32,000 bases of DNA from Telmatocola sphagniphila (GTDB lineage Bacteria > Planctomycetota > Planctomycetia > Gemmatales > Gemmataceae): contig NZ_CP074694.1 in NCBI RefSeq assembly GCF_018398935.1, positions 1,950,001 through 1,982,000 of the forward strand. Direction: 5' to 3'. A model generated the notes under the pieces. The model saw only the letters and a list, made by a program, of their open reading frames with translations. It did no database searches and was not told the origin of the DNA. The position numbers and the translations under genes are program-made. Position 1 is the first letter of the stretch; every line of letters starts with the position of its first letter. Of this stretch, positions 12,311-31,461 are shown piece by piece.

Positions 12311-12652
12311 ATGCGGAATGCGAAATTCTGGATCTTAAGCGTTTGTTTTGCCACCGCTCTGACGGGCACGGCCTTTTTGGCGGGTTCGAGCAATTCGATC
12401 AGTGCCGAGCCGCGCGAAGATTTGAAGGACCACTGGCGAAATCATGACGGCCACTGGAGCTACTGGAATGAGGCCGACAAGCAGTGGTATTACACCGATG
12501 GCGTCCACTGGTTCTTCAGCACCGGTAAAGGCTGGGAACTGTACCGATTCGACAAAAAGTTCGGACACGAAGGTTTCGAACATGGGACCTATAAGGTTCC
12601 AACTCCCGAAGTCAAAGTCGTGGTTCCCCGGCACGAAGTCTGGCATCGATAA
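12311..12652 (+). CDS. Small secreted Trp/His-rich protein (113 aa)
   Basis: GGAGG lies 8 nt upstream of the ATG. There is an N-terminal signal peptide (FWILSVCFATALTGTAFLAGSSNSISA). The mature part has repeated aromatic motifs: HWSYWNEADKQWYYTDGVHWFFSTGKGWELY. Confidence 0.6.
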   Translation: MRNAKFWILSVCFATALTGTAFLAGSSNSISAEPREDLKDHWRNHDGHWSYWNEADKQWYYTDGVHWFFSTGKGWELYRFDKKFGHEGFEHGTYKVPTPEVKVVVPRHEVWHR

Positions 12653-13097
12653 TATTTCCTGTTTCCTACTCCTGTCAGAAGTCGCCCCTTCTGACATCGC
12701 TTCATTTCGAAGCTATCGCATGCCACTTTAAATTCGAGCCAACCTCCCTGCACTTTTCTAGAGAAACCTCCACATCGGCAACTTTTGGCTGTCGTTTGGA
12801 TACGACAAAGAAAACAGTCTCCCTCCGATGGGTTCTCTAACTAACTCTTTTTTCGGTATATCCGGCTCTGAATTTTTGCAAGAAAATACGAAGTGTTCTC
12901 CCAAATTCGTCGACACTCACTCAACGAATATCGTCTCTTCTTCGAAAAAGAGTGCGTCCAAGCAATCCGCCAAAATAAAGATCAAAGAAAGGCCGACGAA
13001 GTGGAGGACCGCCCAGAAATCTTGAATTCTTTGTTGCCGAGATGAAATCATTTCACTCCCACTTTTCCGTTCCGAAGTTCGCCGAGTCATCGATTCC

Positions 13098-14975
13098 TGT
13101 AAACGCCGGTCGAAAAGGGGCTCTGTCGCACAGTTGGTGACGAGCGTTGGTTAGAATGTCTTTAGGAATTCATTCTGACGGGACGCAGCATCATGACTCT
13201 GCAGGACTTCTTTCCTCAAGAAGCCGGTTTGGTCGTCACCGATTTCGCTCTCACTCCGGATCTTTTGGCGATTGCTCTAAAAACCACATGCCCGAGTTCG
13301 CAGTGCCCCGACTGTGGCCAGCTAACATATCGGATTCACAGCCATTATCGGCGTGTATTGGCGGACTTACCCTGGCAAGCTCGACGAGTATTGCTCCGGA
13401 TCGAACTGCGAAAATTTCGATGCATGAATGCCGCTTGCCCCAGGCAAATCTTCTGTGAACGGCTACCTCATGTATTTGCTTCCCATGCTCGAACAACGGA
13501 TCGATTAAAAGCTCTCCAGAAACAGATCGGTTTGGCATTAGGCGGCAGGCCGGGTACTCGACTCACGGAGAAGTTATTCGTCCCGACCAGCAAAGACACC
13601 CTTTTACGTCGAGCCAAAGACAAAGTCGACTCCTTAACCACTCCCCGTGTTCTCGGAGTGGACGATTTCGCTTTTCGAAGAGGGCAAAACTATGGCACCA
13701 TCCTGGTGGATTTAGAAAAGCATCGCGTCCTAGACTTACTACCCGATCGAGAGGCTAAAACCCTGGCGTGTTGGTTGAAGGCCCATCCTCAAGTGGAAAT
13801 TGTCAGCCGAGATCGAGCCACGGCTTACGCCCAAGGCATTCGTGAGGCCTGTCCTCAGTCGATTCAGGTGACGGATCGTTGGCATCTTCTGAAAAATCTG
13901 CGGGAAGCCATCGAACGCTGGTTCGATGGAAAGCGGGAAAAGATTCGGGAGTTGATCCAAAAAAGTCACTGCGAAAAACCTTCCGTCATTCAGGAACTTA
14001 CCAATCAGGTAGCCGGAGGGCTCTCCGATCGGCAGAAATCCCGAATGGAGCAATAGGAGCAAGTACGTCGCTGGCATGAGGAAGGTCTATCGAAACTGCA
14101 AATTCACAAACGAACAGGTCTCCATTTCCGAACGATCGACCGCTACTTGCGGCGAGAGGATTGTCCGAATTGGCTTCCCGGACGAAGAGGTTCCTCTCGT
14201 TTGGATGTTCACGAAGGCTTTATTAAGGAGCAATTGCAACAGCCCAACCAGACGGCCCAAAAAATCCACCAAGCTTTGAGAACAAAGGACTGTTCAATCG
14301 GTTATTCGGTCGTCAAAGCCTGTGTTCGACGTTTGAAAACCGAACTGGGGCTGCCCCTTTCCCGTCCCTCAAAGCCTTTCCCACCTAATCGAGTTCCTTT
14401 GCCTTCTTCACGAAGTCTAGCCATGAACTTGTTGCAAAAATCGGAAACTCGATCCGAGGAAGGAAAACGCATTCTTGAGATTATGCACAGTGCCGGAAGC
14501 GAGTTTCAGGGGCCTATCGATTTGACTTTAGCCTTTGCAACGCTCTTAAGAGGAAAGCAGGAATCGGCATTTTCGGAAGGGCTTCAAAAAGTGGAAGCCT
14601 CCACGGTTCTCGAATTAAAGCGGTTTGCTCAAAGCTTGCGAAACGACGAAGCCGCAGTTAGAGCGGCCGTAACTCTTCCCTGGAGCAATGGCCAAGAGGA
14701 AGGACAAGTTAATCGATTGAAATCGATCAAAAGAGCGATGTTCGGTCGAGCCAAGTTCGATTTGCTGAAAGCGAGAGTGATTTGCAACGGGTAAATGAGT
14801 AACTTGCCTGGAGGTAATTTTCTCCGCTCCCTAGTGAAGCGTCAGAACCCGTGCAAATTCGCCCGCCAAAAATCGCCTGGATGAAGACAAAAAGACGGCT
14901 CTTTCGCTTAGTGGATCACCAACAAATAATCTGCACCAACTGTGCGACAGAGCCCCTTTTCGACCGGCGTTTACA
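13098..14975 (+). mobile_element. ISL3-family insertion sequence with 41-bp perfect terminal inverted repeats
   Basis: gtaaacgccggtcgaaaaggggctctgtcgcacagttggtg at 13099-13139 is the exact reverse complement of 14934-14974, with one more pairing base on each side. It encloses a single transposase reading frame. Confidence 0.9.
13193..14794 (+). pseudogene. ISL3-family transposase (long form, 533 codons) interrupted by one in-frame TAG at 14054-14056
   Basis: ORFs 13193-14056 and 14147-14794 are in the same frame, and the sequence between them translates without further stops (EQ*EQVRRWHEEGLSKLQIHKRTGLHFRTIDRYLRREDCPNW...). N-terminal zinc finger CPDCG...CMNAACP, core LGVDDFAFRRGQNYGTILVDL...VSRDRATAY...VTDRWHLLKNL, and C-terminal SNGQEEGQVNRLKSIKRAMFGRAKFDLL. 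Confidence 0.85.
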
Positions 14976-15467: not shown

Positions 15468-16085
15468 CTTTCACCGGTTTCGGTAAGGACTTTCACGCTA
15501 ATCCTGACGAGTTTGGTTTGCTCAAGGGGGAAAATCTGAAACGAAATTCTCCCTATTTATCGTCTGGTTATGGAATTAGATGAAGTGGAAGATTCGGCCG
15601 CACTGATTTTTCATTATTGAGGCCAAGTTCGGGAAAAGGAAAACTTTGGATAACTCCCACTGAATGCCTCGGAGTTCCCTGGGAATTGATAAATCCCGTT
15701 GAAACCACGAATTAATCTAAGCACTAGGAAGGCGGATCATCTTGTTTAACATGTTGACTGCCTAATCGACTTTCGACCCGCCTGAACGAATTGAATGTGG
15801 AGGACGTTTGCTTTGGCCGCTCGAACTTGTTCTCGAAGCTACCCTCCGAAAGGCACTCATCGTAAGGGTGAGCGGGTCCGCGTACTCGAATCTCCTTAAA
15901 GGCTGTCGCTATTTGAACTCTCTCTAAATCTTATCTAAATTCCCGCCCTTTTTGCGTCATTACCTTTGAGAGAAGTCTAGCTTTGGCTTCTTTCCAGTAC
16001 GCCTCACTTGGGGCTTCACTTTACCCCTTTTCAACACACGACAACCGCCGAACCCCGGCGGTGGTTTCGTTTCTGGAGACTTCTC

Positions 16086-16367
16086 ATGCTGATTCCGATG
16101 TCCGTTCCCGTTTCGATTCCCGTGCTGTCGCTCGAAGATCGCCAGCAGGCGTTCATGACGATCCTGCCCTTGCTGGAGACGAAGGCTCGATTTGCCTTTC
16201 GTGATCTGGAAAGCCGCCACGATCGCGATGACGCGGTAGCCGAAGTGGTTGCCCTGGCCTGGGAGCATTTCAGGCACTCCCGGTCCCTGCCCGCCTCACT
16301 CTTCATTAAGCAGATTCCGCTGTTTATCGCCACCGTCCGGCAACAGCTCTCAGTTCGCCCAGTTTAA
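16086..16367 (+). CDS. Small hypothetical protein (93 aa), first gene of the AAA+/vWA string
   Basis: GGAGA lies 8 nt upstream of the ATG at 16086. An upstream hairpin (16044-16063) argues against the longer 16008 start. The segment DRDDAVAEVVALAWEHF faintly resembles sigma-70 region 2, but this is unsupported otherwise. Confidence 0.5.
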   Translation: MLIPMSVPVSIPVLSLEDRQQAFMTILPLLETKARFAFRDLESRHDRDDAVAEVVALAWEHFRHSRSLPASLFIKQIPLFIATVRQQLSVRPV

Positions 16368-16399
16368 ATCTTTCCTTCTCTTCCAAAAAGGACTTTCTC

Positions 16400-16594
16400 A
16401 TGTCGCGACACGTTTTACTCGAAGAGTTCCATCTGTCGTTTCTGATTCTCGCCGATACGGCCGAAGCCGAAGTGCAGAGAATCCGCCGGCAATTGAATCG
16501 CTCCCGCTTCCAGGCTCTGCTCCGAAGAACCCTGATTCATTTCTTCCGGAAGTATCGGGCTCTCGATTCGGTCGTTTTCAAACTGTCCCGGTAG
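16400..16594 (+). CDS. Small hypothetical protein (64 aa), Arg-rich
   Basis: AAGGA lies 8 nt upstream of the ATG. It is 32 nt after the preceding stop, co-directional, with no recognisable domain. Confidence 0.5.
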   Translation: MSRHVLLEEFHLSFLILADTAEAEVQRIRRQLNRSRFQALLRRTLIHFFRKYRALDSVVFKLSR

Positions 16595-16667
16595 AGCCGT
16601 CTTGCGGTGTCTGCCAATTTGCCTTTCTTCCTATCGCCTAATTCCCAACCTTACCAAGGACCTTCCC

Positions 16668-17798
16668 ATGAAAACCCTCGTTCCCGACTGCGCGGCCCTG
16701 CAAGCCCATTTCGCTTTGCTCCGTTCGGAATTAGCTTCCGGTCTGATCGAACGGGACGAAGAGATCGATTTGTGTCTCACCGCTCTGATCGCCCAAGAGC
16801 ATCTGCTCCTGGTCTCCCCGCCCGGCTGTGCCAAGTCCTTACTGCTCGATTCACTCCTGAAAGCCACCGGCGGCTCCAAGTTCTCGATCCTGCTCACCAA
16901 GTTCACCGTCCCCGAAGAGGTCTTTGGGCCGATCTCGATTCAGGGACTGAAGGAAGACCGCTTCCAGAGAATCACCAACGGCAAACTCCCCGAAGCCGAC
17001 TTCGCTTTCCTCGATGAGGTCTTCAAAGCTTCCTCGGCGATTCTGAATACCCTCCTGAAGATCCTCAACGAACGGACCTTCGATGCCGGCGAAGGTTCCT
17101 TGCGCAAGGTTCCCCTCAAGCTCTGCGTGGCCGCTTCCAACGAATGGCCGGCCCCGGAGAGCGCTCAGGAACTGGCCGCGCTCTTCGACCGCTTCACTCT
17201 GCGGAAGAGTTTATCGCCGATTCGCTCGCAGGCGGGTCGGAAGAAGCTGCTCTGGAATCGGGAGCATACTCCCAAGGTCTCGGTGCACCTGAAGCCAACC
17301 GATCTAGAAGCCGCTCGCCGCTATGCCCGGGAGTTACCCTGGTCCGTTTCTGCCCAGGAAGCCCTGGAAACGATCCTTAAAGACCTAGCCAAGGAGGGCA
17401 TTCAACCGGGCGATCGCCGCCAGTTCAAAGCGGTCGGCATCGCGCAGGCGTACGCTTTCCTGCACGGGGCCGAGCAGGTCGAACCGGAGCATCTGGAAGT
17501 GGCCGCCCACGTTCTCTGGGACGATCCCCGGGAACAGCCCCAAAAAGTCGCTCAGGTGATCGCCCGAATTGCCAATCCGATCGGCATGCGGCTGAATCAA
17601 CTGCTCTTGGAAGTCGAACAAGTTCTGTCCAGCACCGATGTCCGCAAGCTGCCCGAGACGGCCAAAGCCGCCGCCAAGCTCGGCGAGATCGACAAGCAGC
17701 TGAGTGAATTGAAGTCCAATGACCGGGTCACCCGAACCCGGAACTACGTTCGCGAACAGCTCCGACAACTCAAACTCGCCTCGCTGGAGGCGATCTAA
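16668..17798 (+). CDS. MoxR-class AAA+ ATPase, RavA-like core (376 aa)
   Basis: Walker A LLLVSPPGCAKS; Walker B and downstream FAFLDEVFKASSAILNTLLKILNERTF; sensor 1 CVAASNE; LFDRF. The later block GDRRQFKAVGIAQAYAFLHGAEQVEPEHLEVAAHVLWDDP parallels E. coli RavA [21 protein letters not shown]...LKDCLWYD. AAGGA precedes the ATG at 16668. The 16602 start in the ORF track is probably too long. Confidence 0.9.
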   Translation: MKTLVPDCAALQAHFALLRSELASGLIERDEEIDLCLTALIAQEHLLLVSPPGCAKSLLLDSLLKATGGSKFSILLTKFTVPEEVFGPISIQGLKEDRFQRITNGKLPEADFAFLDEVFKASSAILNTLLKILNERTFDAGEGSLRKVPLKLCVAASNEWPAPESAQELAALFDRFTLRKSLSPIRSQAGRKKLLWNREHTPKVSVHLKPTDLEAARRYARELPWSVSAQEALETILKDLAKEGIQPGDRRQFKAVGIAQAYAFLHGAEQVEPEHLEVAAHVLWDDPREQPQKVAQVIARIANPIGMRLNQLLLEVEQVLSSTDVRKLPETAKAAAKLGEIDKQLSELKSNDRVTRTRNYVREQLRQLKLASLEAI

Positions 17799-17813
17799 CC
17801 CCAGGGAAAAACC

Positions 17814-19187
17814 ATGAATGCCGAAGAACTCCGTAAACTCTTCGATCTCGATCGCCCGCTCTCGCCCAGTCCCTCCTCCGCCGAAGACTCCCCTTCTCCT
17901 TTCTCTTCCGCTTCGCCTCCCTCTGCTCCCTCGGGGAATCCAACCGCTCTGCAGGTCGATTCCTGGGGGCTGCGTCGGGGTAGCGATCTGCTGCGGGATT
18001 CTCCCCGCTTGCAATCGTTCGGTCTGGAGGATTACGCCATCGCCGATTTTCATACGGCGGCTTTTGAACCGGAACCGCAGCTGTTGGAGGATTGCCAGGA
18101 TCCGGTTCGCCGGGGCTTTTTGGTCGAGCTGTTCCAGACTCCGGAGTATCAGGCGTTGCACGCCGGGACTCGACTGGATGAAGTCTCCTCCGAGATTACC
18201 ACCCTGCACTTCGCTGAACAATTCGCCGCTCTGCGGAATGCGGCTGCCACGGCCGAACCCGAGATCGCCACATTAAAAGCGGTCAGCCGGGCGGTGCTGG
18301 CCGCTCGCGAAGAGGTCGACCAGTGCCGGGAAGCGATTACTGCTCTCGGCGGCGGGCTCGGTCCTGGAACGCCGGGCTCGGTCGATCCTAAGGCGATCGC
18401 TCAACTATTCCAGCGGGTCCGTCAGGACCCCACGTTGCGAAGGATCTGCGAACTGGCCGGTCGTTATCGGCGACTGGCCCAATCGAGCCAGCGTCGCAAA
18501 TGTGCCCATGGTCAGGACGATCTGGTCGGAGTGACTACCTCAGGAGACTTGGCCCAACTGCTGCCGCACGAGTTGGTCCGCTTGGGAATTCCGGAGTTAG
18601 AACTGGATACCCTGCGACGTCTGGCGGAACGGCAGTGCCTGGCCCGGGACTACCAGTCCTTGGAGCCGGTGGGCAAAGGTCCGATCGTGGTGGTCATCGA
18701 TGAATCGGGCTCGATGGCGGGCGATAAAGTGCAAACAGCCAAGGCTCTCGCTTTGGCTTTGGCTTGGATCGCCCGGCAGCAGCGTCGCTGGTGCGGCCTG
18801 ATTGCCTATTCCGGCGATACCGGTGAACGACTGTTGTCCCTGCCGCCGTCCCGCTGGGACGAATCGGAAGTGCTCGACTGGCTGGGGGCCTTCCTGGGGG
18901 GCGGTTCGACCTTGGATGTTCCGATTGTGGAACTGCCTTGGATGGTGGAACAGCTCTGGGCTCCGGCGGGGATTACCGATGTCTTGATCCTGACCGATGC
19001 CATCTGCTCCATTCCCCTGGAGTTGCAGCAGAATTTTCTGCGCTGGAAGCAATCGGTTTCGGCGCGGGTGATCTCGTTGGTCTTGGCCGATACTGCGGGA
19101 GACCTGGCGGCGTTGTGCGATGAAGTCCATCTGGTTAAATCGCTCGAAGTCACCGAGACCGCCATCGGTTCCGTGCTGTCGATCTAG
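17814..19187 (+). CDS. von Willebrand factor A domain protein, ViaA-like (457 aa)
   Basis: The helical middle region LLPHELVRLGIPELELDTLRRLAERQCLARDY is followed by GPIVVVIDESGSMAGDKVQTAKALALALAWIA (MIDAS DxSGS) and FLGGGSTLD. E. coli ViaA has the same order. The N-terminus is Pro/Ser-rich and low-complexity. It starts 15 nt after the AAA+ stop. Confidence 0.9.
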   Translation: MNAEELRKLFDLDRPLSPSPSSAEDSPSPFSSASPPSAPSGNPTALQVDSWGLRRGSDLLRDSPRLQSFGLEDYAIADFHTAAFEPEPQLLEDCQDPVRRGFLVELFQTPEYQALHAGTRLDEVSSEITTLHFAEQFAALRNAAATAEPEIATLKAVSRAVLAAREEVDQCREAITALGGGLGPGTPGSVDPKAIAQLFQRVRQDPTLRRICELAGRYRRLAQSSQRRKCAHGQDDLVGVTTSGDLAQLLPHELVRLGIPELELDTLRRLAERQCLARDYQSLEPVGKGPIVVVIDESGSMAGDKVQTAKALALALAWIARQQRRWCGLIAYSGDTGERLLSLPPSRWDESEVLDWLGAFLGGGSTLDVPIVELPWMVEQLWAPAGITDVLILTDAICSIPLELQQNFLRWKQSVSARVISLVLADTAGDLAALCDEVHLVKSLEVTETAIGSVLSI

Positions 19188-19212
19188 TCTCCCTTTTTTC
19201 CATCGTGGTGAA

Positions 19213-19256
19213 AGCTCGCAGATCTTCTTATTCAGAAGATTCCGCGGGCTTTTTTC
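19213..19256 (+). terminator. Intrinsic-terminator-like hairpin between the vWA gene and the 292-aa ORF
   Basis: agctcgcagatcttct-tattc-agaagattccgcgggct forms a stem with an internal bulge and one mismatch, followed immediately by tttttt (19250-19255). Confidence 0.45.
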
Positions 19257-19294
19257 GTTTCCATTTTTCATTCTTGAACCTGAAGGAACTCTCT

Positions 19295-20173
19295 ATGAGT
19301 GCTTTGATCAAAACCAACATTATGCCGAAGGTAACTCCGGGAGCTCGCCTCTTGGGCGAAATCATCACCTGGACCGCTTCGGGAGCCAGCGTCCGGCACA
19401 GTGACTTGATTCGAGCCCTGAAAGAAGTCGGCCTCGATGAAAGCGTGGCCCGGGAGTTAGCACCCCGGCACGCTTTTGCCCGGGCCTGTCGCAAGCTGTC
19501 GGAAGCCCGAATTATTCGGCAGATTGTCGAAGATGAAGTCTCGATTCAATTTCAGTTTACCCAGGAATCGAAACAGGGGGACCGCTTCAGCTACGACTTC
19601 GAAACCCTCCTCACGCTGACCAAGAAGACCGGGCAGGTCCACTGCGACAAACGGGAACTGGCTCTATTGGCTCAGGAAGAACTGGATCGCTGCATTGCGG
19701 TGCGAACCGGCAGCGATATCACCCGAATTGTGCAGAAACTTTTTGAGCGGGAAGCCGATCTTTTCCCGATTCGGCCCCAAGGCGGAGCCTACTTCGTGCC
19801 ACAGGTGCACGCCGGCTTCATCGATCGGGTGCAGAGCTTGCTGAAGCAGCTTAATGGTCAGATGCTGCGCTTCCCGGTGCCGGAAGGAACCGCCAGCGGA
19901 GATGTCTCGGTGAAGGAAGCGGTGGCTTCCGGATTATCGGCTCTGATTACGGAACATGAGGAAGCGATCGCTTCGTTCGGCGAAGATACCCGGCCCGATA
20001 CGGTGGAACGAGCCGCTGAGCGGATTCGCAACACCAAGTTCAAAGTCGAAGCCTATGCCGCTCTGCTGGCCGATCAAAAGCATCAGCTGGAGCTTTCCTT
20101 GGCCACGGCTTCCCGAAAGCTCCGTCAGAAGGTCGAAAGTCTGGCTGCTGAGCGGGAAGCGGTCTTGGTTTAG
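19295..20173 (+). CDS. Uncharacterised 292-aa protein
   Basis: GAAGGA lies 8 nt upstream of the ATG at 19295. Notable segments are IRPQGGAYFVPQVHAGFIDRVQSLLKQLNG and a helical, coiled-coil-like C-terminus (KFKVEAYAALLADQKHQLELSLATASRKLRQKVESLAAE). I cannot place it in a named family. Confidence 0.75.
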   Translation: MSALIKTNIMPKVTPGARLLGEIITWTASGASVRHSDLIRALKEVGLDESVARELAPRHAFARACRKLSEARIIRQIVEDEVSIQFQFTQESKQGDRFSYDFETLLTLTKKTGQVHCDKRELALLAQEELDRCIAVRTGSDITRIVQKLFEREADLFPIRPQGGAYFVPQVHAGFIDRVQSLLKQLNGQMLRFPVPEGTASGDVSVKEAVASGLSALITEHEEAIASFGEDTRPDTVERAAERIRNTKFKVEAYAALLADQKHQLELSLATASRKLRQKVESLAAEREAVLV

Positions 20174-20269
20174 TTCGGCCGGTTTTCAACTGATTCGCCA
20201 TTCGGTATTTTTTGCCCTTTGCCCACCTACTCGCCCTTTCACTCCAACACTACTCACCGAAGGAAGATC

Positions 20270-21616
20270 ATGATCCATTTGCAGCGCCGGCAAGTCCGGC
20301 AGTTACGCAGCCTGTTCAAAAAATTGGGAGCGGCCCGAAGCCCGGCTCCTCAGAATCTCTTACTCCAAACCGATGCGAGCGGACTTACGATTCAGGGCTC
20401 GATCGGCGAAGTCACGGCGATTTACCGGCAGCCGGGTTCTTTCGCCGAAGAACAGATGACCATTCCTTTTGCCGTGTTCAATGATACCGCCGGTTCGGAC
20501 GACAGCGTCATCGAGATCGTCGCACTGGTCCACCAGAAGTTGCGCGTCGCCTGGAGTTCGAATACGGTACCGCAGATTCGCGGGTACGAGATTCCCATCA
20601 GTGTCGAAAGCCTGCCTTTACCGGAAGTCTGGACGCCGATGGATCTGCGTCTGCGGGAATCTTTATGCGAGGCGATGAAGACGGCCAGTCCCGAGGCCAC
20701 ACGGTACGCCGTCAATTACATCCAGTTGCGGGGGAGAACCGGCGAAGTCATCGGAACCGATACCCGGCAGCTCTTCATCGAATCAGGATTCGCTTTTCCT
20801 TGGGACGATGAGGTCTTGATCCCCCGGTCTGGACTCTTCGCTGCGGAAGAACTCTCGGCGGACAGACTGGAAATCGCTCGTACAAAAACGCACCTCTGGT
20901 TCCGCTTGGGGTCTTGGATGATCGCCTTGCTAATCGCCTCGGAAGCCCGTTATCCCGAAGTCCATCGAGCGATTCCTGCCTCTTTGGAAGCGACGCGCTG
21001 GAGGATAGACCCGGGAGAATCGCACGGGTTGGCTCAGTGCTTGAAGCAGTTGCCGGGCGAGAAAGATCCGCATCGACCGGTGACGGTGGAACTCAACGGT
21101 CACGTTGCGATTCGGGCTCGAGGAACCGAAAGTCTGCAAACGACCGAAGTTCACCTCAATCGCTCTCAGGTGGAAGGGAATCCGATGAGTCTCGCCTTGG
21201 ATCGAGCTTACCTGCAGCGAGCCTTGCAGTTGGGTTTTTCGGAGTTCCAGATCGTTCATCCCGATAAACCGATAGTCTGCCAGCAGGGCAGCCGAAGGTT
21301 CGTCTGCATGCCGCTGGGTAAAACCTCGGTGATCGCGGCTTGTCCAGAGGCCTTGCAGGTGGAGTTGGGAGAGACTGCCCGAGCGATGAGCGGCAAAAAT
21401 ACTTCGACGAGAATACGAGATCGGGCCAGGAACTTCAGTTCGGCGATTCTGGCCGGTCTTCTGGAAGAAGCGAACTCCCTGCAATCGGTAGTTCAAGCCC
21501 TGCTGGAGCGATTGACCTATTTAAGCGAAGAGCTCCATCGGTTGCTTCCTCGCCGGAAATCGGAGCGCATCGGTGTAAATACTCCGTCCGAAGCCATGAT
21601 CGATCCATTTCTTTAA
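20270..21616 (+). CDS. Divergent DNA polymerase III beta-subunit (sliding clamp)-like protein with a ~80-aa C-terminal extension (448 aa)
   Basis: GAAGGAAG precedes the ATG at 20270. Clamp-family landmarks appear in the right order and spacing. YAVNYIQLRGRTGEVIGTDTRQLFIE compares with LNGV...ATDGHRLA. ASEARYPEVHRAIP compares with GKFPDYRRVIP. MSLALDRAYLQRAL compares with IGFN.KYLLD.L. RRFVCMPL compares with YLVMPM. An extra helical tail (LLEEANSLQSVVQALLERLTYLSEELHRLL) follows. Confidence 0.65.
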   Translation: MIHLQRRQVRQLRSLFKKLGAARSPAPQNLLLQTDASGLTIQGSIGEVTAIYRQPGSFAEEQMTIPFAVFNDTAGSDDSVIEIVALVHQKLRVAWSSNTVPQIRGYEIPISVESLPLPEVWTPMDLRLRESLCEAMKTASPEATRYAVNYIQLRGRTGEVIGTDTRQLFIESGFAFPWDDEVLIPRSGLFAAEELSADRLEIARTKTHLWFRLGSWMIALLIASEARYPEVHRAIPASLEATRWRIDPGESHGLAQCLKQLPGEKDPHRPVTVELNGHVAIRARGTESLQTTEVHLNRSQVEGNPMSLALDRAYLQRALQLGFSEFQIVHPDKPIVCQQGSRRFVCMPLGKTSVIAACPEALQVELGETARAMSGKNTSTRIRDRARNFSSAILAGLLEEANSLQSVVQALLERLTYLSEELHRLLPRRKSERIGVNTPSEAMIDPFL

Positions 21617-21666
21617 CCGTTCGAAACTTCGATTCTTTTTCATTCCAACCCTATCGGAGAAAATGC

Positions 21667-21822
21667 ATGAGTGCGAAGCACAAATTGAATGCGGCCTATA
21701 TGTCGGGCTCGTTTCTGATAGCGATCTTAGTCGGAGCTTTCTTTCAATCGACGGCGATTGTCCTGGGTACGCTGGCCTTCTTGCTCTTCATGGATTTCGT
21801 TGCGGGCAATATCCGCAAGTGA
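21667..21822 (+). CDS. Small membrane protein (51 aa, predicted single or double TM)
   Basis: GGAGA lies upstream of the ATG at 21667. The sequence is MSAKHKLNAAYMSGSFLIAILVGAFFQSTAIVLGTLAFLLFMDFVAGNIRK. It is the 3' part of track ORF 21340-21822, and the terminator hairpin follows directly. Confidence 0.5.
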   Translation: MSAKHKLNAAYMSGSFLIAILVGAFFQSTAIVLGTLAFLLFMDFVAGNIRK

Positions 21823-22431: not shown

Positions 22432-23307
22432 TCAGTATACCTCCTTAAGCAATGTCGGTATTTGATCTTTGCGAAGGGCATCGATTACAACTTGGCTTGA
22501 TTTCCAGGGATCGCCAGGAATTCGAACGATCAGTTTGCCCCACACTTTGCCGAAAGCCGCAAGGGCATCCGTCTCGGAATAGCTGACGCCAGTCGGGAGT
22601 AAGGGGGCGATGTCTTCAATGAGGCTTTGGTTCAGCTTCCGGAGCATCCGCTCTTCGGCATTCGCCCGACTGATTGGCTTCTCTTCCAACGCGAGGTAAT
22701 GGTTGAAGCAACCGATCAACCTATCGCTATCCAGTTCCAGCTGTGAAAGTCCTTCGTTCAAATCAAACAGGTCACGGTTTTTATTCCTCTGAAGCAGTGC
22801 CCGAAGTTTCGTGCCGAATAGTTCTTCCGGCTCGAAGGAGATAATCTCAGTTCTCGCTTTGTGCCAGTCACTGCTGACCTCAAACGGATACGATTGCAGG
22901 CCGTGAAGATTCTGCTGCTCCCGCGTATTGATCTCGATTTTGAGCTTAAGCGGCTTGCCGTCACCTATTTCTGGAGTGAACTGGAAGACCAGATGCATCG
23001 AATGGAGAGCCTGATTCCGCTTACAGTTGCCAAGCCAGGACAGTGCTTCACGAATGGCATCCACCGTCGGCCCAATTGGCTCAGCTCTCATCTGAACCAA
23101 ATCAATATCTTCAGAGTAGCGAAGCGGTTCCGAAAAGAGCAGTTTGTTGATCGCCGTGCCGCCGCGAAAAGCGATCTTGCCTTGGAGTTTCTCGCTGTTA
23201 AACAAATCGCAAAGCGCCCGGCAAATGATCAGGTCCTGTTCCACCTGCCGAAGATCGGGCCACGGAGCATTTGCTGTCCATTCTTGTAAGTGTGCCAGTG
23301 GTATCAC
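22432..23307 (-). CDS. abiEii: AbiEii/AbiGii-family nucleotidyltransferase toxin (DUF1814)
   Basis: VEQDLIICRALCDLF...KIAFRGGTAINKLLFSEPLRYSEDIDLV is the characteristic AbiEii N-terminal NTase motif. It overlaps the upstream antitoxin gene by ATGA (23304-23307). Confidence 0.9.
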   Translation of the reverse strand: MIPLAHLQEWTANAPWPDLRQVEQDLIICRALCDLFNSEKLQGKIAFRGGTAINKLLFSEPLRYSEDIDLVQMRAEPIGPTVDAIREALSWLGNCKRNQALHSMHLVFQFTPEIGDGKPLKLKIEINTREQQNLHGLQSYPFEVSSDWHKARTEIISFEPEELFGTKLRALLQRNKNRDLFDLNEGLSQLELDSDRLIGCFNHYLALEEKPISRANAEERMLRKLNQSLIEDIAPLLPTGVSYSETDALAAFGKVWGKLIVRIPGDPWKSSQVVIDALRKDQIPTLLKEVY

Positions 23308-24122
23308 GCTTCGAGCTCCACTGGCACATTGATGATTAGCATCCAGTCAGGGTTCTTCTCGTCCAGCAATCCGAGTTCAGCAACCAGCGGTTTGACTGCG
23401 GGATCCAGCGCCTTGAAGGACTTCGCTTTCTTGGCGAAGTCCTTGAGCGACTCGGCTTGCCGATTATGACCGAAACGCTCCAGGAAATAGCCAAGACGTC
23501 TGACCGCAGAATTTTCATAGGCACTTGCGGCCTTCGCCAGAATTCGCGGATTGGCATTTTTACCCAGATCATGAACGGCCTGCGCCGCACCGTTGATTCC
23601 CGCTGCTTTATGGAAGTAACGGCAGATATCGAGCAAGGTCAATTCCAAGCCTGCGATCTGGGCGAACCCGGCTTCCGTTTTGAGCTTCGAGAGCCACGCT
23701 GGATTGTTTGCTTCTTCAAAAGTAGCCGAAGTCTGGAACAAAAAATCGACTCTCTGGCGACCGACAGCAATCTTCGGGAGTTGCTTTGGTGCAATAACCT
23801 GAAAGATCATCGCCGCCTGATGCGACGATCCGTGAAACGCCGCCGCACGCAGCAGAGATATTCGGTAATCCAGCCCCAAATGCTTCATCAACGGATCAAT
23901 CCAGCGTGAGGGGTCGGGAGCGCCAAGTTGTCGGTCCTCAGGCCTCAAAATCAAGTAGAACCCCCGGCGGGGAGAAACAAGCAGCCCTTTCCTCTTAACC
24001 CGACCAATCGCTGCTTGGAAGGCTTCCGCGGAAAGCCCAAGCTCAGCCAAAGCTTCTTCTTTGGTGAAGTAGCCTCTCCCTCTGGCAAGCTGCGATTCGA
24101 TGTATTCCCTCACATTTTTCAT
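23304..24122 (-). CDS. abiEi: AbiEi-family antitoxin / transcriptional regulator (type IV TA)
   Basis: N-terminal wHTH (YFTKEEALAELGLSAEAFQAAIGRVKRKGLLVSPRRGFYLI), a C-terminal domain of AbiEi_4 size, and translational coupling to AbiEii. Confidence 0.85.
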   Translation of the reverse strand: MKNVREYIESQLARGRGYFTKEEALAELGLSAEAFQAAIGRVKRKGLLVSPRRGFYLILRPEDRQLGAPDPSRWIDPLMKHLGLDYRISLLRAAAFHGSSHQAAMIFQVIAPKQLPKIAVGRQRVDFLFQTSATFEEANNPAWLSKLKTEAGFAQIAGLELTLLDICRYFHKAAGINGAAQAVHDLGKNANPRILAKAASAYENSAVRRLGYFLERFGHNRQAESLKDFAKKAKSFKALDPAVKPLVAELGLLDEKNPDWMLIINVPVELEA

Positions 24123-25120: not shown

Positions 25121-26035
25121 GAGTCTGTTCCAAAAGCGTGTATGTGTGTATAATTACACATGGAACGGAAACCCTATTCAACAGATTTAACGGATGCTCA
25201 GTGGGCTCTTTTGGAGCCCTGGATTCCCGAGGCTCGACCCGGTGGTCGACCGCGAAAAACCGACATGCGAGAAGTCGTCAATGCCCTATTCTACCTGACC
25301 AAGGAAGGATGTCGCTGGCGAGGTTTACCGCATGACTTTCCCCCGTGGAAAACGGTTTACAATTATTTTGAAGCTTGGAAGCGGGACGGCACTTGGGAAG
25401 AGATCCTAACGGCTCTGCGCTGTCGCGTTCGTCAAGCGGCCAATCGTTCGCCCAATCCTCGCGTTGCCTGCATCGACAGCCAGTCGGTGAAGACGGCTTT
25501 TGGAGGAGAAGAAGTCGGAACCGATGGCGGCAAAAAGGTCCGCGGCCGTAAACGCCACATCGTGGTGGATACTCTCGGATTACTGCTAGCCCTAGTGGTA
25601 ACGGGCGCGAATGTCGATGATGCCAAAGCTGCTCAAACGCTGTTTGAACAGATGCCCAAAACTGCTTTTCCCCGCTTGGAAACCATACAGGCGGACAACA
25701 AGTATCACAATTATCAATTGCAGAGTTGGCTGCGGGATCACAAGCGACCCTATACCGTTTGGGTGGTGAATCGTCCGTCGGGAGAACGAAAGTTTATGCC
25801 GCTGAGAAGTCGCTGGGTGGTGGAGCGAACTTTCGCCTGGTTGGGACGTTGTCGACGGCTAAGTAAAGACTACGAGCATTTACCGGAATCCAGCGAGGCC
25901 ATCGTGCAAATCGCATGCATTCAACACTACTTACGCCGTCTCTATCCCAGTCGAGTGAAACATACACAACGGTTTCGGTATAAAGGCCATACTCCTAAAA
26001 CTCTAGCCGCTTAATTCGGCTTTTGGAACAGACTC
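25121..26035 (+). mobile_element. IS5-family (IS427-like) insertion sequence, 915 bp, with a TTA target duplication
   Basis: 17-bp perfect inverted repeat gagtctgttccaaaagc (25121-25137) / gcttttggaacagactc (26019-26035). TTA lies immediately outside both ends (25118-25120 and 26036-26038). Confidence 0.9.
25160..26014 (+). CDS. IS5 family transposase (284 aa)
   Basis: DUF4096-type N-terminus (LTDAQWALLEPWIPEARPGGRPRKTDMREVVNALFYLTKEGCRWRGLP) followed by the DDE core (IDSQSVKT...KRHIVVDTLGLLLALVVTGANVDD...ADNKY...RWVVERTFAWL). Confidence 0.92.
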   Translation: MERKPYSTDLTDAQWALLEPWIPEARPGGRPRKTDMREVVNALFYLTKEGCRWRGLPHDFPPWKTVYNYFEAWKRDGTWEEILTALRCRVRQAANRSPNPRVACIDSQSVKTAFGGEEVGTDGGKKVRGRKRHIVVDTLGLLLALVVTGANVDDAKAAQTLFEQMPKTAFPRLETIQADNKYHNYQLQSWLRDHKRPYTVWVVNRPSGERKFMPLRSRWVVERTFAWLGRCRRLSKDYEHLPESSEAIVQIACIQHYLRRLYPSRVKHTQRFRYKGHTPKTLAA

Positions 26036-26168: not shown

Positions 26169-26873
26169 TTACTTTGCCCGCTTAGCCCTCTCATCGTACC
26201 AAGCCTGCAACAGAAGAAAACTCGCGAAAACCATCACGACCCACTGATAAAAAGTCAACCCCGAGTCCATCCTTGGCTCAATTCGAATGAACTCCATTAC
26301 GAAGCGAAAAACGCAATATGCGATGAGGTAAATCTTCAACCGCTGGGTCGCGAATTGATTGGAAATCTGCCAGCGCGCCAGTATCCAGACCCAAAAGCCG
26401 TGAAAAACCGATTCGTACAACTGCGTTGGATGACGTGGAATTCCATCGCCAAAATCGTAGCCCCAGGGCAATTCTGTTGGCTTACCCGCACAGCATCCAT
26501 TCGCAAAACAGCCAAGCCGTCCAATCGTCAGAGCGAGCGCCAGAGGCAGAGCGAGACCATCTCCAGTTTTTACGCGAATACCGCGAATCGCCTTGCATAT
26601 TTCGACCCCAAGATAGGCTCCCATCAATCCCGTGGTTAACGTTTTACCGTCTGAAAACCAGGTTTCCCACGAATACATCGCCGGATCATTCATCAATACG
26701 AAAGGTAACTTGGCGCTAATCGTTCCCCCAAAAAATGCAGAGATTCCTATCCAGATTCGATCCATCAGAGGCAGGCGAGCCGATGGATCATTGACGGCAA
26801 ACAGCCGACGGCCCAAAAGGAAAACCAGAACGGCCAAGATCATGCAGGCGCCATAGGCAAAGCGCCCGCTCAT
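26169..26873 (-). CDS. Lgt-family (prolipoprotein diacylglyceryl transferase-like) membrane protein, short form (234 aa)
   Basis: FGGTISAKL, LALTIGRLGCFANGCCAGKPTELPWGY and IPRHPTQLYES match the Lgt signature blocks, and the protein is multi-TM. Its start overlaps the radical-SAM stop (ATGA at 26870-26873). Confidence 0.75.
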   Translation of the reverse strand: MSGRFAYGACMILAVLVFLLGRRLFAVNDPSARLPLMDRIWIGISAFFGGTISAKLPFVLMNDPAMYSWETWFSDGKTLTTGLMGAYLGVEICKAIRGIRVKTGDGLALPLALALTIGRLGCFANGCCAGKPTELPWGYDFGDGIPRHPTQLYESVFHGFWVWILARWQISNQFATQRLKIYLIAYCVFRFVMEFIRIEPRMDSGLTFYQWVVMVFASFLLLQAWYDERAKRAK

Positions 26874-28423
26874 GATTTTACACCACCCAGTGAAATCAAG
26901 GGCAGATTAGAAATGCTTCGTGATGATGTGTCCTGCTTGGAATCTGCAAGCGGTGGTAGAGGCAATGTGCCATCGCGGTATAAGGTGTTGTAAGCACAAA
27001 AGGGTATTATGTGACCGCTGGGCAAAATGTGCGCCAGGCAGCATTTCATCACTCGCCGGGTATCGAAAGTATAGCTATCCAGAAAACCGGTAAGCGTGAT
27101 GCGAAAGACCTCCTTGCCCGTCAACTTTTCTGACAGCGCCTGCTCGATGAAATTGGAAGGCTCGGCCGATCCGCACCCTCCCGGACCGCAGCCGCAATCC
27201 CCTGCCGAGGCAACGGCTTTTGCGACGAGGTTCCTGGCTCGAGCGGGAGTATATACGATGGAATTGGCAATCAGATCCATATGTGGTTTCGGATCGATCA
27301 GTCGCGAAATAGGTACGACACTCTCTTCTCCCCGATAGAGATAAGCCATTCGATGACAATTGGGGTGGGCACAGGGCAAAGGATAAAAATCGTCTGCACG
27401 AAGTATCTCCGGCACTTGCCGCACCAAGGCTTTCATCAGATCGGGCATGGTCGTGCGATTTTCGAGATCTTTCGCAGGAAGATGCCGGCCGCAGTATGTA
27501 GCCAGCTGATAGCTCACGCCGCGAACTTCTTCCCGCGACAGCCCGAACTTCAGCACTTCACCCACCTGATCGATATTTGCCGTATGTTCTACAGTACAAA
27601 CCAACGTGCAGCGTATTCCGGCCTCGCGAAGTCGGTCCAGTGCCTGCCGTTTGACATCGAGAAGATTCTCGCCGCGCAAAGCGAGATGGCTTTCACTCGA
27701 AAATCCGTCGAATTGAAGATAAATTTCCAGCCGATCTCGCATCGTGGCTAGTTGAGAAACGAGATCCGGATCCCGTGCGAGCCGAATACCGTTTGTGTTG
27801 ATCATCACGACCTGTATCGGTTGCTGATAGGCATACTCCAGCATAGGGACAAGTTCGGGATGAAGTGTCGGTTCACCGCCAGAGAGCTGCAGCACATCAG
27901 CGATCCCTTCATGCAGAATATAGCGATCCACCATCGATTTATAGGTCGCAAAATCGATGTGCTTACCGCCGGGCCCTGACTCCGCAAAGCACATTGGGCA
28001 ACGTAAATTGCAAGAGGAAGTAATTTCGATTAATCCAATGCAGGTGTGCTGTTCGTGCTCCGGGCAGAGGCCGCAATCGTAGGGGCAGCCTTTGTCGGCA
28101 GTTGTCCCATACGATTCCGGCATTCGCGCCGGCTGATCGAATTCATGCTGGTCGTAAAAAGCGACATCCGAGCATATGAAATCTTCGCGCGTTCCGTGTT
28201 CCGGACAATGCTTCCGGAAGTAAACGCGTTGGCCGCGCACCAGGATTTTCGCATCGACCACTCGTTTGCATTCGGGGCAGAGGCTTCGAGTGGTTCCGCG
28301 ATAGACGTAATCTCGAACGGGCATCTTAGACTCCCGATTAATTAAGAATTCAGATAGATCCGGATCCCAATGATGTCGCTTGAAATCCGCCTTCAGTTCA
28401 TCAGTTGAGCTGAGATGATTCAA
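26870..28423 (-). CDS. Radical SAM enzyme with an N-terminal zinc ribbon and extra Cys clusters
   Basis: Zinc ribbon CPECKRVV...KHCPEHG. A first CX3CX2C motif, CPYDCGLCPEHEQHTC. The canonical radical-SAM motif SSCNLRCPMCFA followed by LQLSGGEPTL. A Cys-rich C-terminus (PCAHPNCH, DCGCGPGGCG, KCCLAH...IPFCAYN). An alternative start at 28324 has GGGAG 6 nt upstream. Confidence 0.85.
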   Translation of the reverse strand: MNHLSSTDELKADFKRHHWDPDLSEFLINRESKMPVRDYVYRGTTRSLCPECKRVVDAKILVRGQRVYFRKHCPEHGTREDFICSDVAFYDQHEFDQPARMPESYGTTADKGCPYDCGLCPEHEQHTCIGLIEITSSCNLRCPMCFAESGPGGKHIDFATYKSMVDRYILHEGIADVLQLSGGEPTLHPELVPMLEYAYQQPIQVVMINTNGIRLARDPDLVSQLATMRDRLEIYLQFDGFSSESHLALRGENLLDVKRQALDRLREAGIRCTLVCTVEHTANIDQVGEVLKFGLSREEVRGVSYQLATYCGRHLPAKDLENRTTMPDLMKALVRQVPEILRADDFYPLPCAHPNCHRMAYLYRGEESVVPISRLIDPKPHMDLIANSIVYTPARARNLVAKAVASAGDCGCGPGGCGSAEPSNFIEQALSEKLTGKEVFRITLTGFLDSYTFDTRRVMKCCLAHILPSGHIIPFCAYNTLYRDGTLPLPPLADSKQDTSSRSISNLPLISLGGVKS

Positions 28424-28956: not shown

Positions 28957-30434
28957 CTGCACTTTCCCAGAAAGTCTTAACAATTTAGGGGTATTGGGAA
29001 TTTGAATTGCTCTTGAAAAAGCCGGTGCTTCCGTCAGCATGGTGGTGCTTAAAAAACATCAAGCCAGGAAGGCACCGGCCATGGAAGTATCTCGTTTTCC
29101 CTCCTTTCTGTCCAGCGCTTTTTCCGCCCTGGTCTTCTTTTTGGATGCTCGAATCCAGTCGCTAACCGTGCGTATCTTCCGCGGCATGTTCCTCGCTCAG
29201 GACCAGCGACGCACCGCCTCCCGATGGTTCCGAGCCGCCGGTATCCGTCGAAAGTACAAGTCGGCCTACCGGCACCTTGCAGCGGTCGGTCGAGAATCCC
29301 TTTCGATGAGTACCGCCGTGGGACGACTGGTTCTCAAACACCCGGCGGCCCAATCCGAGAAGATCGTGATTGCTCTGGATGACACCCTCACCAAACGTTA
29401 CGGTCCGAAGGTCGAAGGGGCCGGAATTCACCACAATCCGACTCCGGGTCCGATCGGACAGTTGCTCGAATACGGGCAGAACTTCGTCGTGGCGGCTTTA
29501 TTGGCCTGGCATCCTCTCCACGGCGTTATCGGCTTGCCTTGGCGAGCCCAGTTATACGTCCGCCAGAAAGAGGTCGCGACGCTTCCCCGCAAGTACCAGT
29601 GGAAGTTTCGGACCAAGCTGCAACTGGCGGTGGAGATCCTGCAATGGCTCTCGAAGTCTTTGTTTTCTCCGGGGAAAGCAGTCTGGATCGTGGCGGATGG
29701 CGGCTATGCGAAGAAACCGATTCTGCGGGCGTGTCGGCAGTTGAACTTCACATTGATCAGTCGGCTCCGCAAGGATGCCGCCCTATACGAGTTGCCCTCT
29801 CCCTCCAAAGGTCGGGGGCGTCCCCGCAAGTACGGAGAGAAGCGAATCGACTTGGCCAAGCGAGCGGCTCATGCCCGGGGATGGTCGTCGGCCTCCCTGC
29901 AGTTGTACGGTCGCCCAGAAGTCAAAACGTACAAGAGTTTTCTGGCGACCTGGAAGTCGGCGGAGGGAGTCATCCGCGTGGTTCTGGTTAAAGAGAAAAA
30001 AGGGTGGATCGCTTTCTTCTCGACGAATCCGGAGGCGACGGTGGCCCAGATCCTGGAAACCGTGGCCAGCCGCAATGCCATCGAGCAGGTCTTCAAGGAC
30101 GTCAAGGAAGTTTGGAGAGCCGGTCAGCAGCAATTGCGAAACCTGCACGCCAACATCGGCGCGTTTCACATGAACCTGTGGATGATGACTTTGACCGAAC
30201 TGTGGGCTTGGGATCAACCGCAAAGGAAGTTAGTGGATCGTGCCGATCGTCCCTGGGATAATCGGCCGCGACGGCCTTCTCATAACGATCGACGCAAGTC
30301 GTTGCTAAAGCTGATTTTGCAAGAAGAATTTCGAGCACTTCCGCAAAGAGGGCCCGGAACGCGAAAATACAAAAAAGCCGTCAAACGCTTGTTCCAAATG
30401 GCCTGCTCCGCTTAGATTATCTGGGAAAGTGCAG
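28957..30434 (+). mobile_element. Complete copy B of the IS4/IS701-like element (1,478 bp)
   Basis: 14-15-bp terminal inverted repeat ctgcactttcccag(a) at 28957 / (t)ctgggaaagtgcag ending at 30434. One 458-aa transposase ORF. No clear target duplication is visible. Confidence 0.9.
29039..30415 (+). CDS. DDE transposase (458 aa), IS4/IS701-like
   Basis: Candidate catalytic triad contexts are IVIALDDTLTKRYG, VWIVADGGYAKK and RNAIEQVFKDVKE. There is a basic patch, KGRGRPRKYG. The family assignment is not resolved by eye. Confidence 0.88.
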   Translation: MVVLKKHQARKAPAMEVSRFPSFLSSAFSALVFFLDARIQSLTVRIFRGMFLAQDQRRTASRWFRAAGIRRKYKSAYRHLAAVGRESLSMSTAVGRLVLKHPAAQSEKIVIALDDTLTKRYGPKVEGAGIHHNPTPGPIGQLLEYGQNFVVAALLAWHPLHGVIGLPWRAQLYVRQKEVATLPRKYQWKFRTKLQLAVEILQWLSKSLFSPGKAVWIVADGGYAKKPILRACRQLNFTLISRLRKDAALYELPSPSKGRGRPRKYGEKRIDLAKRAAHARGWSSASLQLYGRPEVKTYKSFLATWKSAEGVIRVVLVKEKKGWIAFFSTNPEATVAQILETVASRNAIEQVFKDVKEVWRAGQQQLRNLHANIGAFHMNLWMMTLTELWAWDQPQRKLVDRADRPWDNRPRRPSHNDRRKSLLKLILQEEFRALPQRGPGTRKYKKAVKRLFQMACSA

Positions 30435-31376: not shown

Positions 31377-31461
31377 AAATTATTCAGGATTTTTGGCACT
31401 CGGGACATTCTTTTGTCGCATTGAGAGTAGGAACTACTCCGAATCCTCTCGAAGGACAGCC

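Follow-up and report, generated by a model that had tools for sequence, protein, structure and literature searches.

What is a gene for a sliding clamp doing among transposases, at the end of a small cassette, and does it belong to the cell's own replication machinery or to a mobile element? The question arises from a 32,000-nucleotide (nt) stretch of the Telmatocola sphagniphila genome (contig NZ_CP074694.1, forward-strand positions 1,950,001 to 1,982,000; hereafter the window), in which the gene at 20270–21616 (+) encodes a product of 448 amino acids (aa) that matches exactly in sequence KIH39_07930 (QVL33824.1), annotated as "hypothetical protein". The open reading frame (ORF), counted from its first TTG, is intact and spans 20219–21616 (+); its start is assigned here to the ATG at 20270, because homologues open with M-I-x-x-x-R at this position and because a ribosome-binding sequence, GAAGGAAG, is located 6–13 nt upstream. 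Judged by sequence profiles and a predicted structure, the product is a very diverged homologue of the DnaN family of sliding clamps, and we lean towards the reading that it is a clamp encoded by a mobile element for replication, repair or establishment of that element's DNA, and not a part of the host replisome.

Fold and conserved residues of the clamp

Searches with the clamp as a single sequence returned no match at E ≤ 1 in Pfam (DNA_pol3_beta, DNA_pol3_beta_2, and DNA_pol3_beta_3 included) or in NCBIfam, nothing in PADLOC, and nothing by phmmer against PDB, so that only the family profile, PHROGs, and structure exposed the homology. A profile built from 13 homologues matched the DnaN chain 7rzm_A in PDB (E = 1.8e-8) as well as five further DnaN chains at E ≤ 1e-5 (several at about 5e-6), with profile positions 116–322 paired in register with DnaN 117–326. 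The clamp sequence by itself matched PHROG 947, "DNA polymerase processivity factor" (E = 7.6e-7; residues 23–321), and an hhalign comparison with E. coli DnaN (366 aa) gave E = 4.4e-5 over 279 columns; the PDB alignments reproduce the E. coli residue correspondences obtained with hhalign. A model predicted with AlphaFold2 (AF2) from the alignment had a mean predicted local distance difference test score (pLDDT) of 83 and a predicted template modelling (TM) score of 0.74, with most of the core above 85; in this model, residues 1–365 form six beta-alpha-beta-beta-beta units, i.e., three tandem clamp-fold domains (residues 1–120, 121–240, and 241–365; positions 20270–21364). When the model was compared with PDB using Foldseek, the top 50 matches were all DnaN (E of about 1e-21 to 1e-19; target-normalised TM scores of 0.72–0.77), and the best of these (E = 1.8e-21; target-normalised TM score of 0.75) extended over about 375–380 columns at 16–20% identity. 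Comparison with the predicted viral structures in BFVD yielded 139 matches at E ≤ 0.001 (best E = 6e-20), and those listed were mostly annotated phage clamps. The original prediction, which had read this gene from its sequence as a highly diverged clamp homologue, is thus borne out on both counts, by the profile and structural matches for homology and by the blank single-sequence searches, the Pfam beta-clamp domains among them, for divergence.

The four DnaN landmarks on which that prediction rested are all present, ordered, and in register with DnaN. The first, TDTRQL (residues 163–168; 20756–20773), aligns with E. coli TDGHRL (172–177), which represents the pocket subsite T172–L177, and sits inside domain II rather than opening it, as had been proposed. 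RYPEVHRAIP (residues 227–236; 20948–20977), in the connector between domains II and III, aligns with E. coli RFPDYRRVLP (240–249). The third landmark, DRAYLQRAL (residues 311–319; 21200–21226), is part of a domain III helix equivalent to E. coli N320–N328, which includes the pocket residues N320 and Y323; within it, DRAYLQ (311–316) aligns with NVSYVL (320–325). FVCMPL (residues 344–349; 21299–21316) was matched by eye with E. coli YVVMPM (359–364), the C-terminal strand that closes the pocket, as the tool alignments stop near residue 322. The three-domain fold, these landmarks, and the pocket residues are shared with the DnaN structures from E. coli (2POL) and P. aeruginosa (4TSZ and 6AMS), while the window clamp differs from bacterial DnaN in its low (16–20%) identity, in scoring below the Pfam thresholds, and in its long C-terminal addition with a heptad helix.

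The residues that line the partner-binding pocket represent the best-conserved link between the clamp family and DnaN. Among 155 family representatives, scored from the sequence alignment with similar residues grouped, the equivalents of E. coli R152, T172, D173, G174, L177, P242, N320, Y323, V360, and M364 are kept at 78–100%. Individually, R152 is R in 96% of representatives, Y153 is Y/F in 95%, T172 is T/S in 99%, D173 is D in 99%, G174 is G in 81%, F241 is F/Y in 99%, P242 (P229 in the window clamp) is P in 100%, N320 is N/D in 91%, Y323 is Y/F in 78%, Y359 is Y/F in 94%, and M364 (window L349) is L in 96%; R227 of the window clamp is R in 90% of the family. The hydrophobic pocket, the conservation of which the original prediction had left to be checked, is thus conserved in sequence. 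In the family alignment, R6, R13, and R312 are invariant and R317 is nearly invariant, and the helices that carry these four arginines should, by analogy with DnaN, line the central channel. Retention of the pocket and of the channel-helix arginines speaks for a functional clamp whose docking site is functional too.

A conserved pocket may also serve a decoy or hijacker, which would bind host proteins that carry clamp motifs (Pol III alpha, Hda, MutS/L, and translesion polymerases) or mix rings with host DnaN, and would in this way inhibit replication and repair in the host, or divert them, to the element's advantage, with no role in processivity. The standing of the pocket residues as the most conserved link to DnaN fits such a role, as do the lack of a polymerase in the cassette and the additional C-terminal module, which could block or gate the partner-binding face; however, a pure peptide trap would not need the three-domain crescent and the presumed channel-helix arginines, both of which are retained, and a nuclease and a ligase that flank related clamps in a second genomic context, described below, look like clients. 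We consider a decoy unlikely, and the present data do not separate it from a clamp that serves the element's own DNA.

The predicted C-terminal helical extension is real and is conserved in every branch of the family, but its dimensions had to be revised: about 97 residues, and not about 80, follow K351, the equivalent of the E. coli C-terminus, and the protein continues for 23 residues after the heptad-like helix that had been thought to end it. In the AF2 model, FVCMPL is followed by a short strand, a linker (residues 366–391; 21365–21442), a helix (residues 392–425; 21443–21544), and the 23-residue tail (residues 426–448; 21545–21613), which is basic at first and ends in ...MIDPFL; pLDDT falls below 50 in the linker (368–389) and in the tail. 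The linker varies in length and sequence across the clamp family. The helix, delimited with DSSP, is amphipathic and comprises five heptads in a clean register, with LAVLL and LLLLL at the a and d positions. Every branch of the family presents an amphipathic helix, a basic patch (e.g., LKRHRKQSK), and a terminal S/T-L-[KR]-x-L motif, and all listed full-length representatives align along the whole profile, tail included. The L[KR]xL motif is found in 163 of 185 family tails, as compared to 5% of shuffled tails; in the Telmatocola copies this usual terminal motif is replaced, in three of the four by an ...DPFL or ...DPFI ending. As a Q/A/S-L-x-L pattern resembling a clamp-binding motif is fitted by only 45 of the 185 tails, the idea of a self-binding tail stays speculative.

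Copy number, cassette and carriage on mobile elements

The description of this gene as an orphan did not survive the family search, an exhaustive HMMER search that retrieved 3641 representatives of clusters at 50% identity with E ≤ 0.001; at least 1277 of these clusters reached E ≤ 1e-30, and the 1277 align over the full profile, including the tail. A scan of one genome per species (185,579 species genomes) identified 21 loci, all in Planctomycetota (Singulisphaera, Isosphaeraceae, Pirellulaceae, Thermoguttaceae, Planctomycetaceae, Phycisphaerae, Gemmatales, and Planctopirus), with two copies in several genomes; these genome scans were seeded by sequence patterns and hence undercount. New here, as far as these alignments indicate, is a very large unannotated lineage, with genome loci that all belong to Planctomycetota and with a universal extension of linker, helix, basic patch, and terminal motif. 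The Telmatocola genome contains four copies of the clamp; the window copy shares 96, 80, and 70% identity with its three paralogues, and each copy lies two locus tags past a VWA gene (07920/07930, 08300/08310, 22655/22665, and 15495/15505); all four VWA and all four clamp paralogues are annotated as intact proteins.

These copies bear directly on the possibility that the gene is simply the housekeeping dnaN in a very diverged form, an explanation that the fold favors and nothing else does. Housekeeping DnaN differs from the window clamp in copy number and in context: there are four paralogues, each placed in the same way after a VWA gene, and no dnaA, recF or gyrB is found nearby, as the original prediction had noted, the neighbours being MoxR, VWA, DUF6744, AbiE, and transposase genes. 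The clamp also falls under every Pfam DnaN threshold, and the family was found at only 21 loci in the species genomes, often two per genome, in a scan limited by its search patterns. We therefore rejected the housekeeping explanation, to which we assign next to no probability, on copy number and context; on the same basis, the window gene almost certainly does not encode the clamp with which the cell itself replicates, and the presence of four paralogues in identical cassettes makes it very unlikely that this is the sole dnaN in the genome.

The clamp is the last gene of a same-strand (+) cassette that consists of a bpMoxR AAA+ ATPase, a VWA protein, a DUF6744 protein, and the clamp. The first gene (16668–17798) encodes a bpMoxR/RavA-like ATPase (PF20030, E = 7.3e-52; AAA_5, E = 9.4e-21; NCBIfam RavA, E = 2.9e-56); the ORF as listed opens at a TTG at 16602, and the N-termini of homologues put the start at the ATG at 16668. 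The second gene, KIH39_07920 (17814–19187), encodes a ViaA-like VWA protein (VWA_2, E = 5e-4; NCBIfam ViaA, E = 4e-21) with a short N-terminal motif and a Pro-rich linker. The third (19289–20173) encodes a DUF6744 protein (PF20529, E = 1.1e-10) of 294 aa if translation starts at the ATG at 19289; as listed, the ORF opens at a GTG at 19205. Walker A (PPGCAKS) and Walker B (FLDEVF) motifs were found in the translated ATPase and a motif of the metal ion-dependent adhesion site (MIDAS) type, DESGS, in the translated VWA protein, and the catalytic motifs of the former and the MIDAS motif of the latter look intact. A profile search with DUF6744 retrieved 710 homologues; its AF2 model (pLDDT of 79) showed no propeller and no significant fold match in PDB.

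Linkage within the cassette was assessed in 80 metagenomic loci, fetched with a DUF6744 query and searched with hidden Markov models (HMMs), with loci that had enough sequence as denominators. A family clamp was found 3′ of DUF6744 on the same strand in 34 of 37 loci, and the VWA and MoxR genes were found upstream of DUF6744 in 38 of 38 and 20 of 20 loci, respectively; the same gene order is present in L002/L003 and in L029/L030. The full cassette is also present on L032, the only one of eight IMG/VR contigs with the MoxR, VWA, and DUF6744 genes to show a clamp in the available flanks; the family HMM picks up this clamp in two neighbouring pieces (11090–11530 and 11534–12601), and a frameshift, a stop codon or an error in the sequence appears to split the gene. 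Two short motifs are common to the window, L002, L028, and L029 and look like docking motifs, namely [DE]-[DE]-L-[LR]-[KR]-[LM]-[LF]-D-L, which precedes the Pro-rich linker at the N-terminus of the VWA protein (17814–17860), and a ...Q-[LI]-[RK]-x-[LI]-K-L-A-S-[LI]-E-A-[IV] ending at the C-terminus of MoxR (17760–17798). We also observed that the LAS[LI] core of the MoxR ending recurs in the usual clamp tail (STLASLRQLQ).

The same trio of MoxR, VWA, and DUF6744 genes is carried by plasmids and phages. Plasmid pDSM3922.1 of Alicyclobacillus acidoterrestris has, in a row, a primase zinc-finger gene, dnaN, DUF6744, bpMoxR, and VWA, with DUF6094 and SNF2 farther downstream; a plasmid of Brevibacillus marinus carries dnaN, DUF6094, a helicase gene, DUF6744, an AAA ATPase gene, and VWA, with an SNF2 gene also present; and the integrase-bearing metagenomic contig L031 has genes for a DnaG zinc ribbon, dnaN, DUF6744, bpMoxR, and VWA. 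The dnaN genes of the two Bacillota plasmids and of L031 have canonical length and are matched by the Pfam DnaN models, and primase zinc-finger genes adjoin dnaN in two of these three. The cultured, 177-kb Moorella phage MTATph1 (L040; OR602862.1, 112731–116922) has DUF6744, MoxR, and VWA in a row, annotated as hypothetical protein, ATPase, and hypothetical protein, next to the gene for the large subunit of ribonucleotide reductase, with no clamp detected alongside. On two annotated IMG/VR contigs without a detected clamp, the trio is near genes for UvrD, Prim-Pol, a serine recombinase, and an intein-containing DnaB, and on an Isosphaera contig a trio with no detected clamp is beside a gene for a DEAD-box helicase protein of >1900 aa. 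These phage, plasmid, and IMG/VR contexts indicate that the trio is a replication or early-region module of mobile elements. As a side observation, an intein carrying a LAGLIDADG domain splits the DnaB gene of one IMG/VR contig with the trio (L035, 16047–18614, −).

The clamp is therefore a frequent partner of the trio, and one that is almost always present in the planctomycete lineage, so that the accessory operon of the original prediction can be described as a conserved bpMoxR–VWA–DUF6744–clamp cassette carried by mobile elements. Relatives of the cassette are found directly on plasmids, phage, and viral contigs, while for the window clamp carriage by a mobile element rests on the IS (insertion sequence)-rich island and on the four copies. 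A second clamp of this sort had been called unusual, but mobile-element-encoded clamps are an already known kind and phage-encoded ones are common, as the 139 BFVD matches illustrate. Both the plasmid dnaN genes (pDSM3922.1 and Brevibacillus marinus) and PHROG 947 represent mobile-element clamps, and the plasmid genes are located beside the same trio; however, the plasmid clamps have canonical length (379–393 aa) and are Pfam-positive, whereas the clamps of the planctomycete family have diverged much further and always carry a C-terminal extension. The literature searched contained no mention of DUF6744 and no report linking MoxR/VWA pairs to DnaN, and the tight link of the clamp to the bpMoxR–VWA–DUF6744 trio, which also accompanies canonical dnaN on Bacillota plasmids, is new.

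The clamp family also occurs in a second genomic context. Most of the 21 genome loci (L001 and L004–L024; e.g., L005, 5936–12802) carry another module, often twice per genome, with genes in the order DUF1257-like, DUF2997, AAA ATPase, "C1", small genes, clamp, "C3", and PD-(D/E)XK nuclease; some of these loci end with an ATP-dependent DNA ligase bearing a WGR domain. The AAA ATPase of this module is a classical one (PF00004; phrog_8638, E = 5.6e-83), the nuclease matches PF12705 (E = 4.8e-33), and neither C1 (about 320 aa) nor C3 (about 170 aa) matches a Pfam family. C1 was considered as a distant DUF6744 and rejected (hhalign probability of 0.3%). In a rough neighbour-joining tree, most cassette clamps form one clade and the clamps of the window, L002, and L029 are nearer to those of the second context, which suggests modular exchange between the two contexts, although the tree is crude and is not leaned on here. 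In the case of PCNA, FEN1 and DNA ligase I process and seal nicks while tethered to the clamp, and the gene order of the second context, with a PD-(D/E)XK nuclease and then an ATP-dependent ligase behind the clamp, is alike as a functional analogy only; unlike PCNA, the family clamps are of the DnaN type, no clamp-binding motif was found, and the nuclease–ligase context is absent from the window.

The composition of the cassette also brings in a conflict system, i.e., a nucleoside triphosphate-dependent defence or exclusion system of the MoxR–vWA type, in which the clamp would sense or mark invading or aberrant DNA and the ATPase–VWA pair would transduce or reset the signal. The Pfam name bpMoxR derives from the MoxR–vWA–beta-propeller ternary systems, which are treated as conflict systems in PMC7159879 (Kaur et al. 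2020), and the window ATPase is of this type; as in RavA–ViaA and other MoxR–VWA pairs and in the ternary systems, a bpMoxR/RavA-like ATPase and a ViaA-like VWA protein are encoded by adjacent, co-oriented genes. The cassette is located beside an AbiEii/AbiEi pair in an IS-rich island, defence or exclusion modules are often found on mobile elements, and the cassette is multi-copy, with clamps that diverge faster (96, 80, and 70% identity) than the VWA proteins, all four of which are inside one 90% cluster. However, the four cassette proteins gave no PADLOC match except for one noise hit (E = 0.025), no effector domain (nuclease, protease or toxin) was recognised in the cassette, and clamps are not mentioned in PMC7159879. 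The third component is DUF6744 rather than the defining beta-propeller/VMAP, the window having DUF6744 and a sliding clamp where the ternary systems have a beta-propeller/VMAP with effector domains, and elsewhere the trio is found among replication and nucleotide-metabolism genes of a phage and of plasmids. A conflict system seems a rather unlikely explanation.

Surroundings of the cassette in the window

The window is dense in insertion sequences, with seven or more transposase genes or fragments in 32 kb. These include DDE_5 transposases (2–712 and 29039–30415), a DDE_3 transposase (881–1966), a DDE_Tnp_1 element (5681–6880), one intact ISL3 element (8538–10019) and one broken into two ORFs (13193–14794), and an IS4/5 element (25160–26014). 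The DDE_Tnp_1 element lies inside an acyltransferase (Acyl_transf_3) gene (+), which seems to be split into an N-terminal part (5046–5639) and a C-terminal part (7098–7457). The AbiEii nucleotidyltransferase toxin and AbiEi antitoxin genes, a type IV toxin–antitoxin or abortive infection pair, are located directly 3′ of the cassette (22432–24122, −). Further downstream are genes for a radical SAM protein with an N-terminal zinc ribbon of the HMPTM type and an Lgt-like prolipoprotein diacylglyceryl transferase (26169–28423, −), followed at 30810–31998 (+) by an extracytoplasmic function (ECF) sigma factor gene (PF07638) and the start of a Ser/Thr protein kinase gene; a similar sigma factor and kinase pair is near the cassette in L029.

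Similarity to related elements is limited to 16119–21816 (synteny with L002 begins at 16119), and the window cassette therefore stands alone, without the DUF6094, SNF2, and PAPS-reductase genes found upstream in L029. Several small ORFs (all +) accompany the cassette. A 119-aa ORF (16008–16367), with tblastn matches in L002, L016, and L021 and no Pfam match, is partly conserved upstream of related cassettes. A 64-aa ORF 5′ of MoxR (16400–16594; MSRHVLLEEFHLSF...KLSR) resembles, by eye, a 64-aa gene located 3′ of the clamp in L002 (11390–11584; MAELIVIDEFHLTV...SLSR), a resemblance that may point to an element whose gene order is circular or permuted. A small hydrophobic ORF of 51 aa (MSAKHKLNAAYMSGSFLIAILVGAFF...) is found 3′ of the clamp (21667–21822) and has relatives 3′ of clamps in L002 (11622–11777), L029 (12872–13081), and L005 (about 12811–12993), i.e., in both genomic contexts. 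The gap between DUF6744 and the clamp in the window is only 96 nt, and the gene of about 99 aa that usually occupies it is missing; elsewhere, this gene (L002, 9184–9486; L029, 10982–11281; L028, 10896–11192) encodes a protein with the pattern …WPFLPLVRR.PDG…LPKEVFDTFDE.V.AGWRVD. A scan of the operon for promoters and terminators found nothing over background.

With transposases crowding the window, the upstream genes of the fuller element (DUF6094, SNF2, PAPS reductase, and small genes) missing, the gene of about 99 aa absent, and the terminal tail motif of the family gone from the Telmatocola copies, the cassette at this locus might be a stranded remnant without function, of a family that functions elsewhere. 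We consider this very improbable, as the four cassette ORFs are intact and a good ribosome-binding site precedes the clamp, the four VWA and four clamp paralogues are annotated as intact, and the catalytic motifs of the ATPase and VWA proteins are present.

Proposed role of the clamp and its significance

We propose that the clamp would form a head-to-tail dimeric ring around the DNA of the element and that its conserved pocket would recruit DNA enzymes, either a host polymerase or ligase or, as in the second context, a nuclease and ligase of the element; a ring on element DNA that recruits enzymes through its pocket would thus serve replication, repair or establishment of the element. The linker, the leucine zipper-like helix, the basic patch, and the terminal motif may together provide a docking or regulatory handle specific to this family, and the RavA/ViaA-like ATPase–VWA pair and DUF6744 may act on or with the clamp.

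Several observations weigh against a clamp that serves element DNA in this manner. The window cassette has no gene for a DNA polymerase, a primase or a canonical clamp loader, and neither the window nor the cassette loci examined yielded a replicative polymerase of the element's own. Sequences with a loose resemblance to clamp-binding motifs, none of them convincing, were all that turned up at the ends of the VWA, MoxR, DUF6744, C3, nuclease, and ligase proteins. Seven further IMG/VR contigs carry the trio with no clamp detected in the available flanks, and the same holds for L028; the link between trio and clamp is thus strong in one lineage and not obligatory. A tblastn search with the clamp family found no match in INPHARED phages or PLSDB plasmids, and pattern scans of IMG/VR, with the clamp alone and with an alignment, found no relatives, L032 being the only one to surface later. 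Finally, among the same locus pairs (window, L002, and L029), the clamps are 34–39% identical and the MoxR, VWA, and DUF6744 proteins 55–65% identical, which makes the clamp, by these alignments, the fastest-evolving gene of the cassette at about twice the rate of its partners; such fast evolution is no less compatible with a role in conflict than with one in core replication.

A more specific possibility concerns the trio itself, which may represent a clamp-handling machine, unrelated to the RFC and gamma-complex loaders, that loads, unloads or remodels a private clamp on element DNA; the C-terminal extension would then be a handle gripped by the VWA adaptor or the AAA+ ring, or a self-capping tail to be released. 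This idea is compatible with the data because the clamp is linked to DUF6744 in 34 of 37 loci, Bacillota plasmids combine the trio with a canonical dnaN, no branch of the family lacks the extension, and the VWA and MoxR proteins carry shared short motifs; we nevertheless hold it to be improbable at present.

Sliding clamps are hubs of DNA replication and repair, and clamps encoded by mobile elements provide a way to redirect host enzymes. For KIH39_07930 and its relatives, we propose the label "DnaN-like sliding clamp (mobile-element type)" in place of "hypothetical protein". With this analysis, over 1000 clusters of unannotated proteins in Planctomycetota acquire a fold and a probable role. 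As a clamp is tied to a RavA/ViaA-like ATPase pair and DUF6744 across two phyla, in phages, plasmids, and integrated elements, these findings give a first concrete functional lead for DUF6744 and for this branch of MoxR–VWA proteins, pointing to clamp or DNA-replication biology, and the linkage of clamp and trio raises the testable possibility of non-canonical clamp handling.

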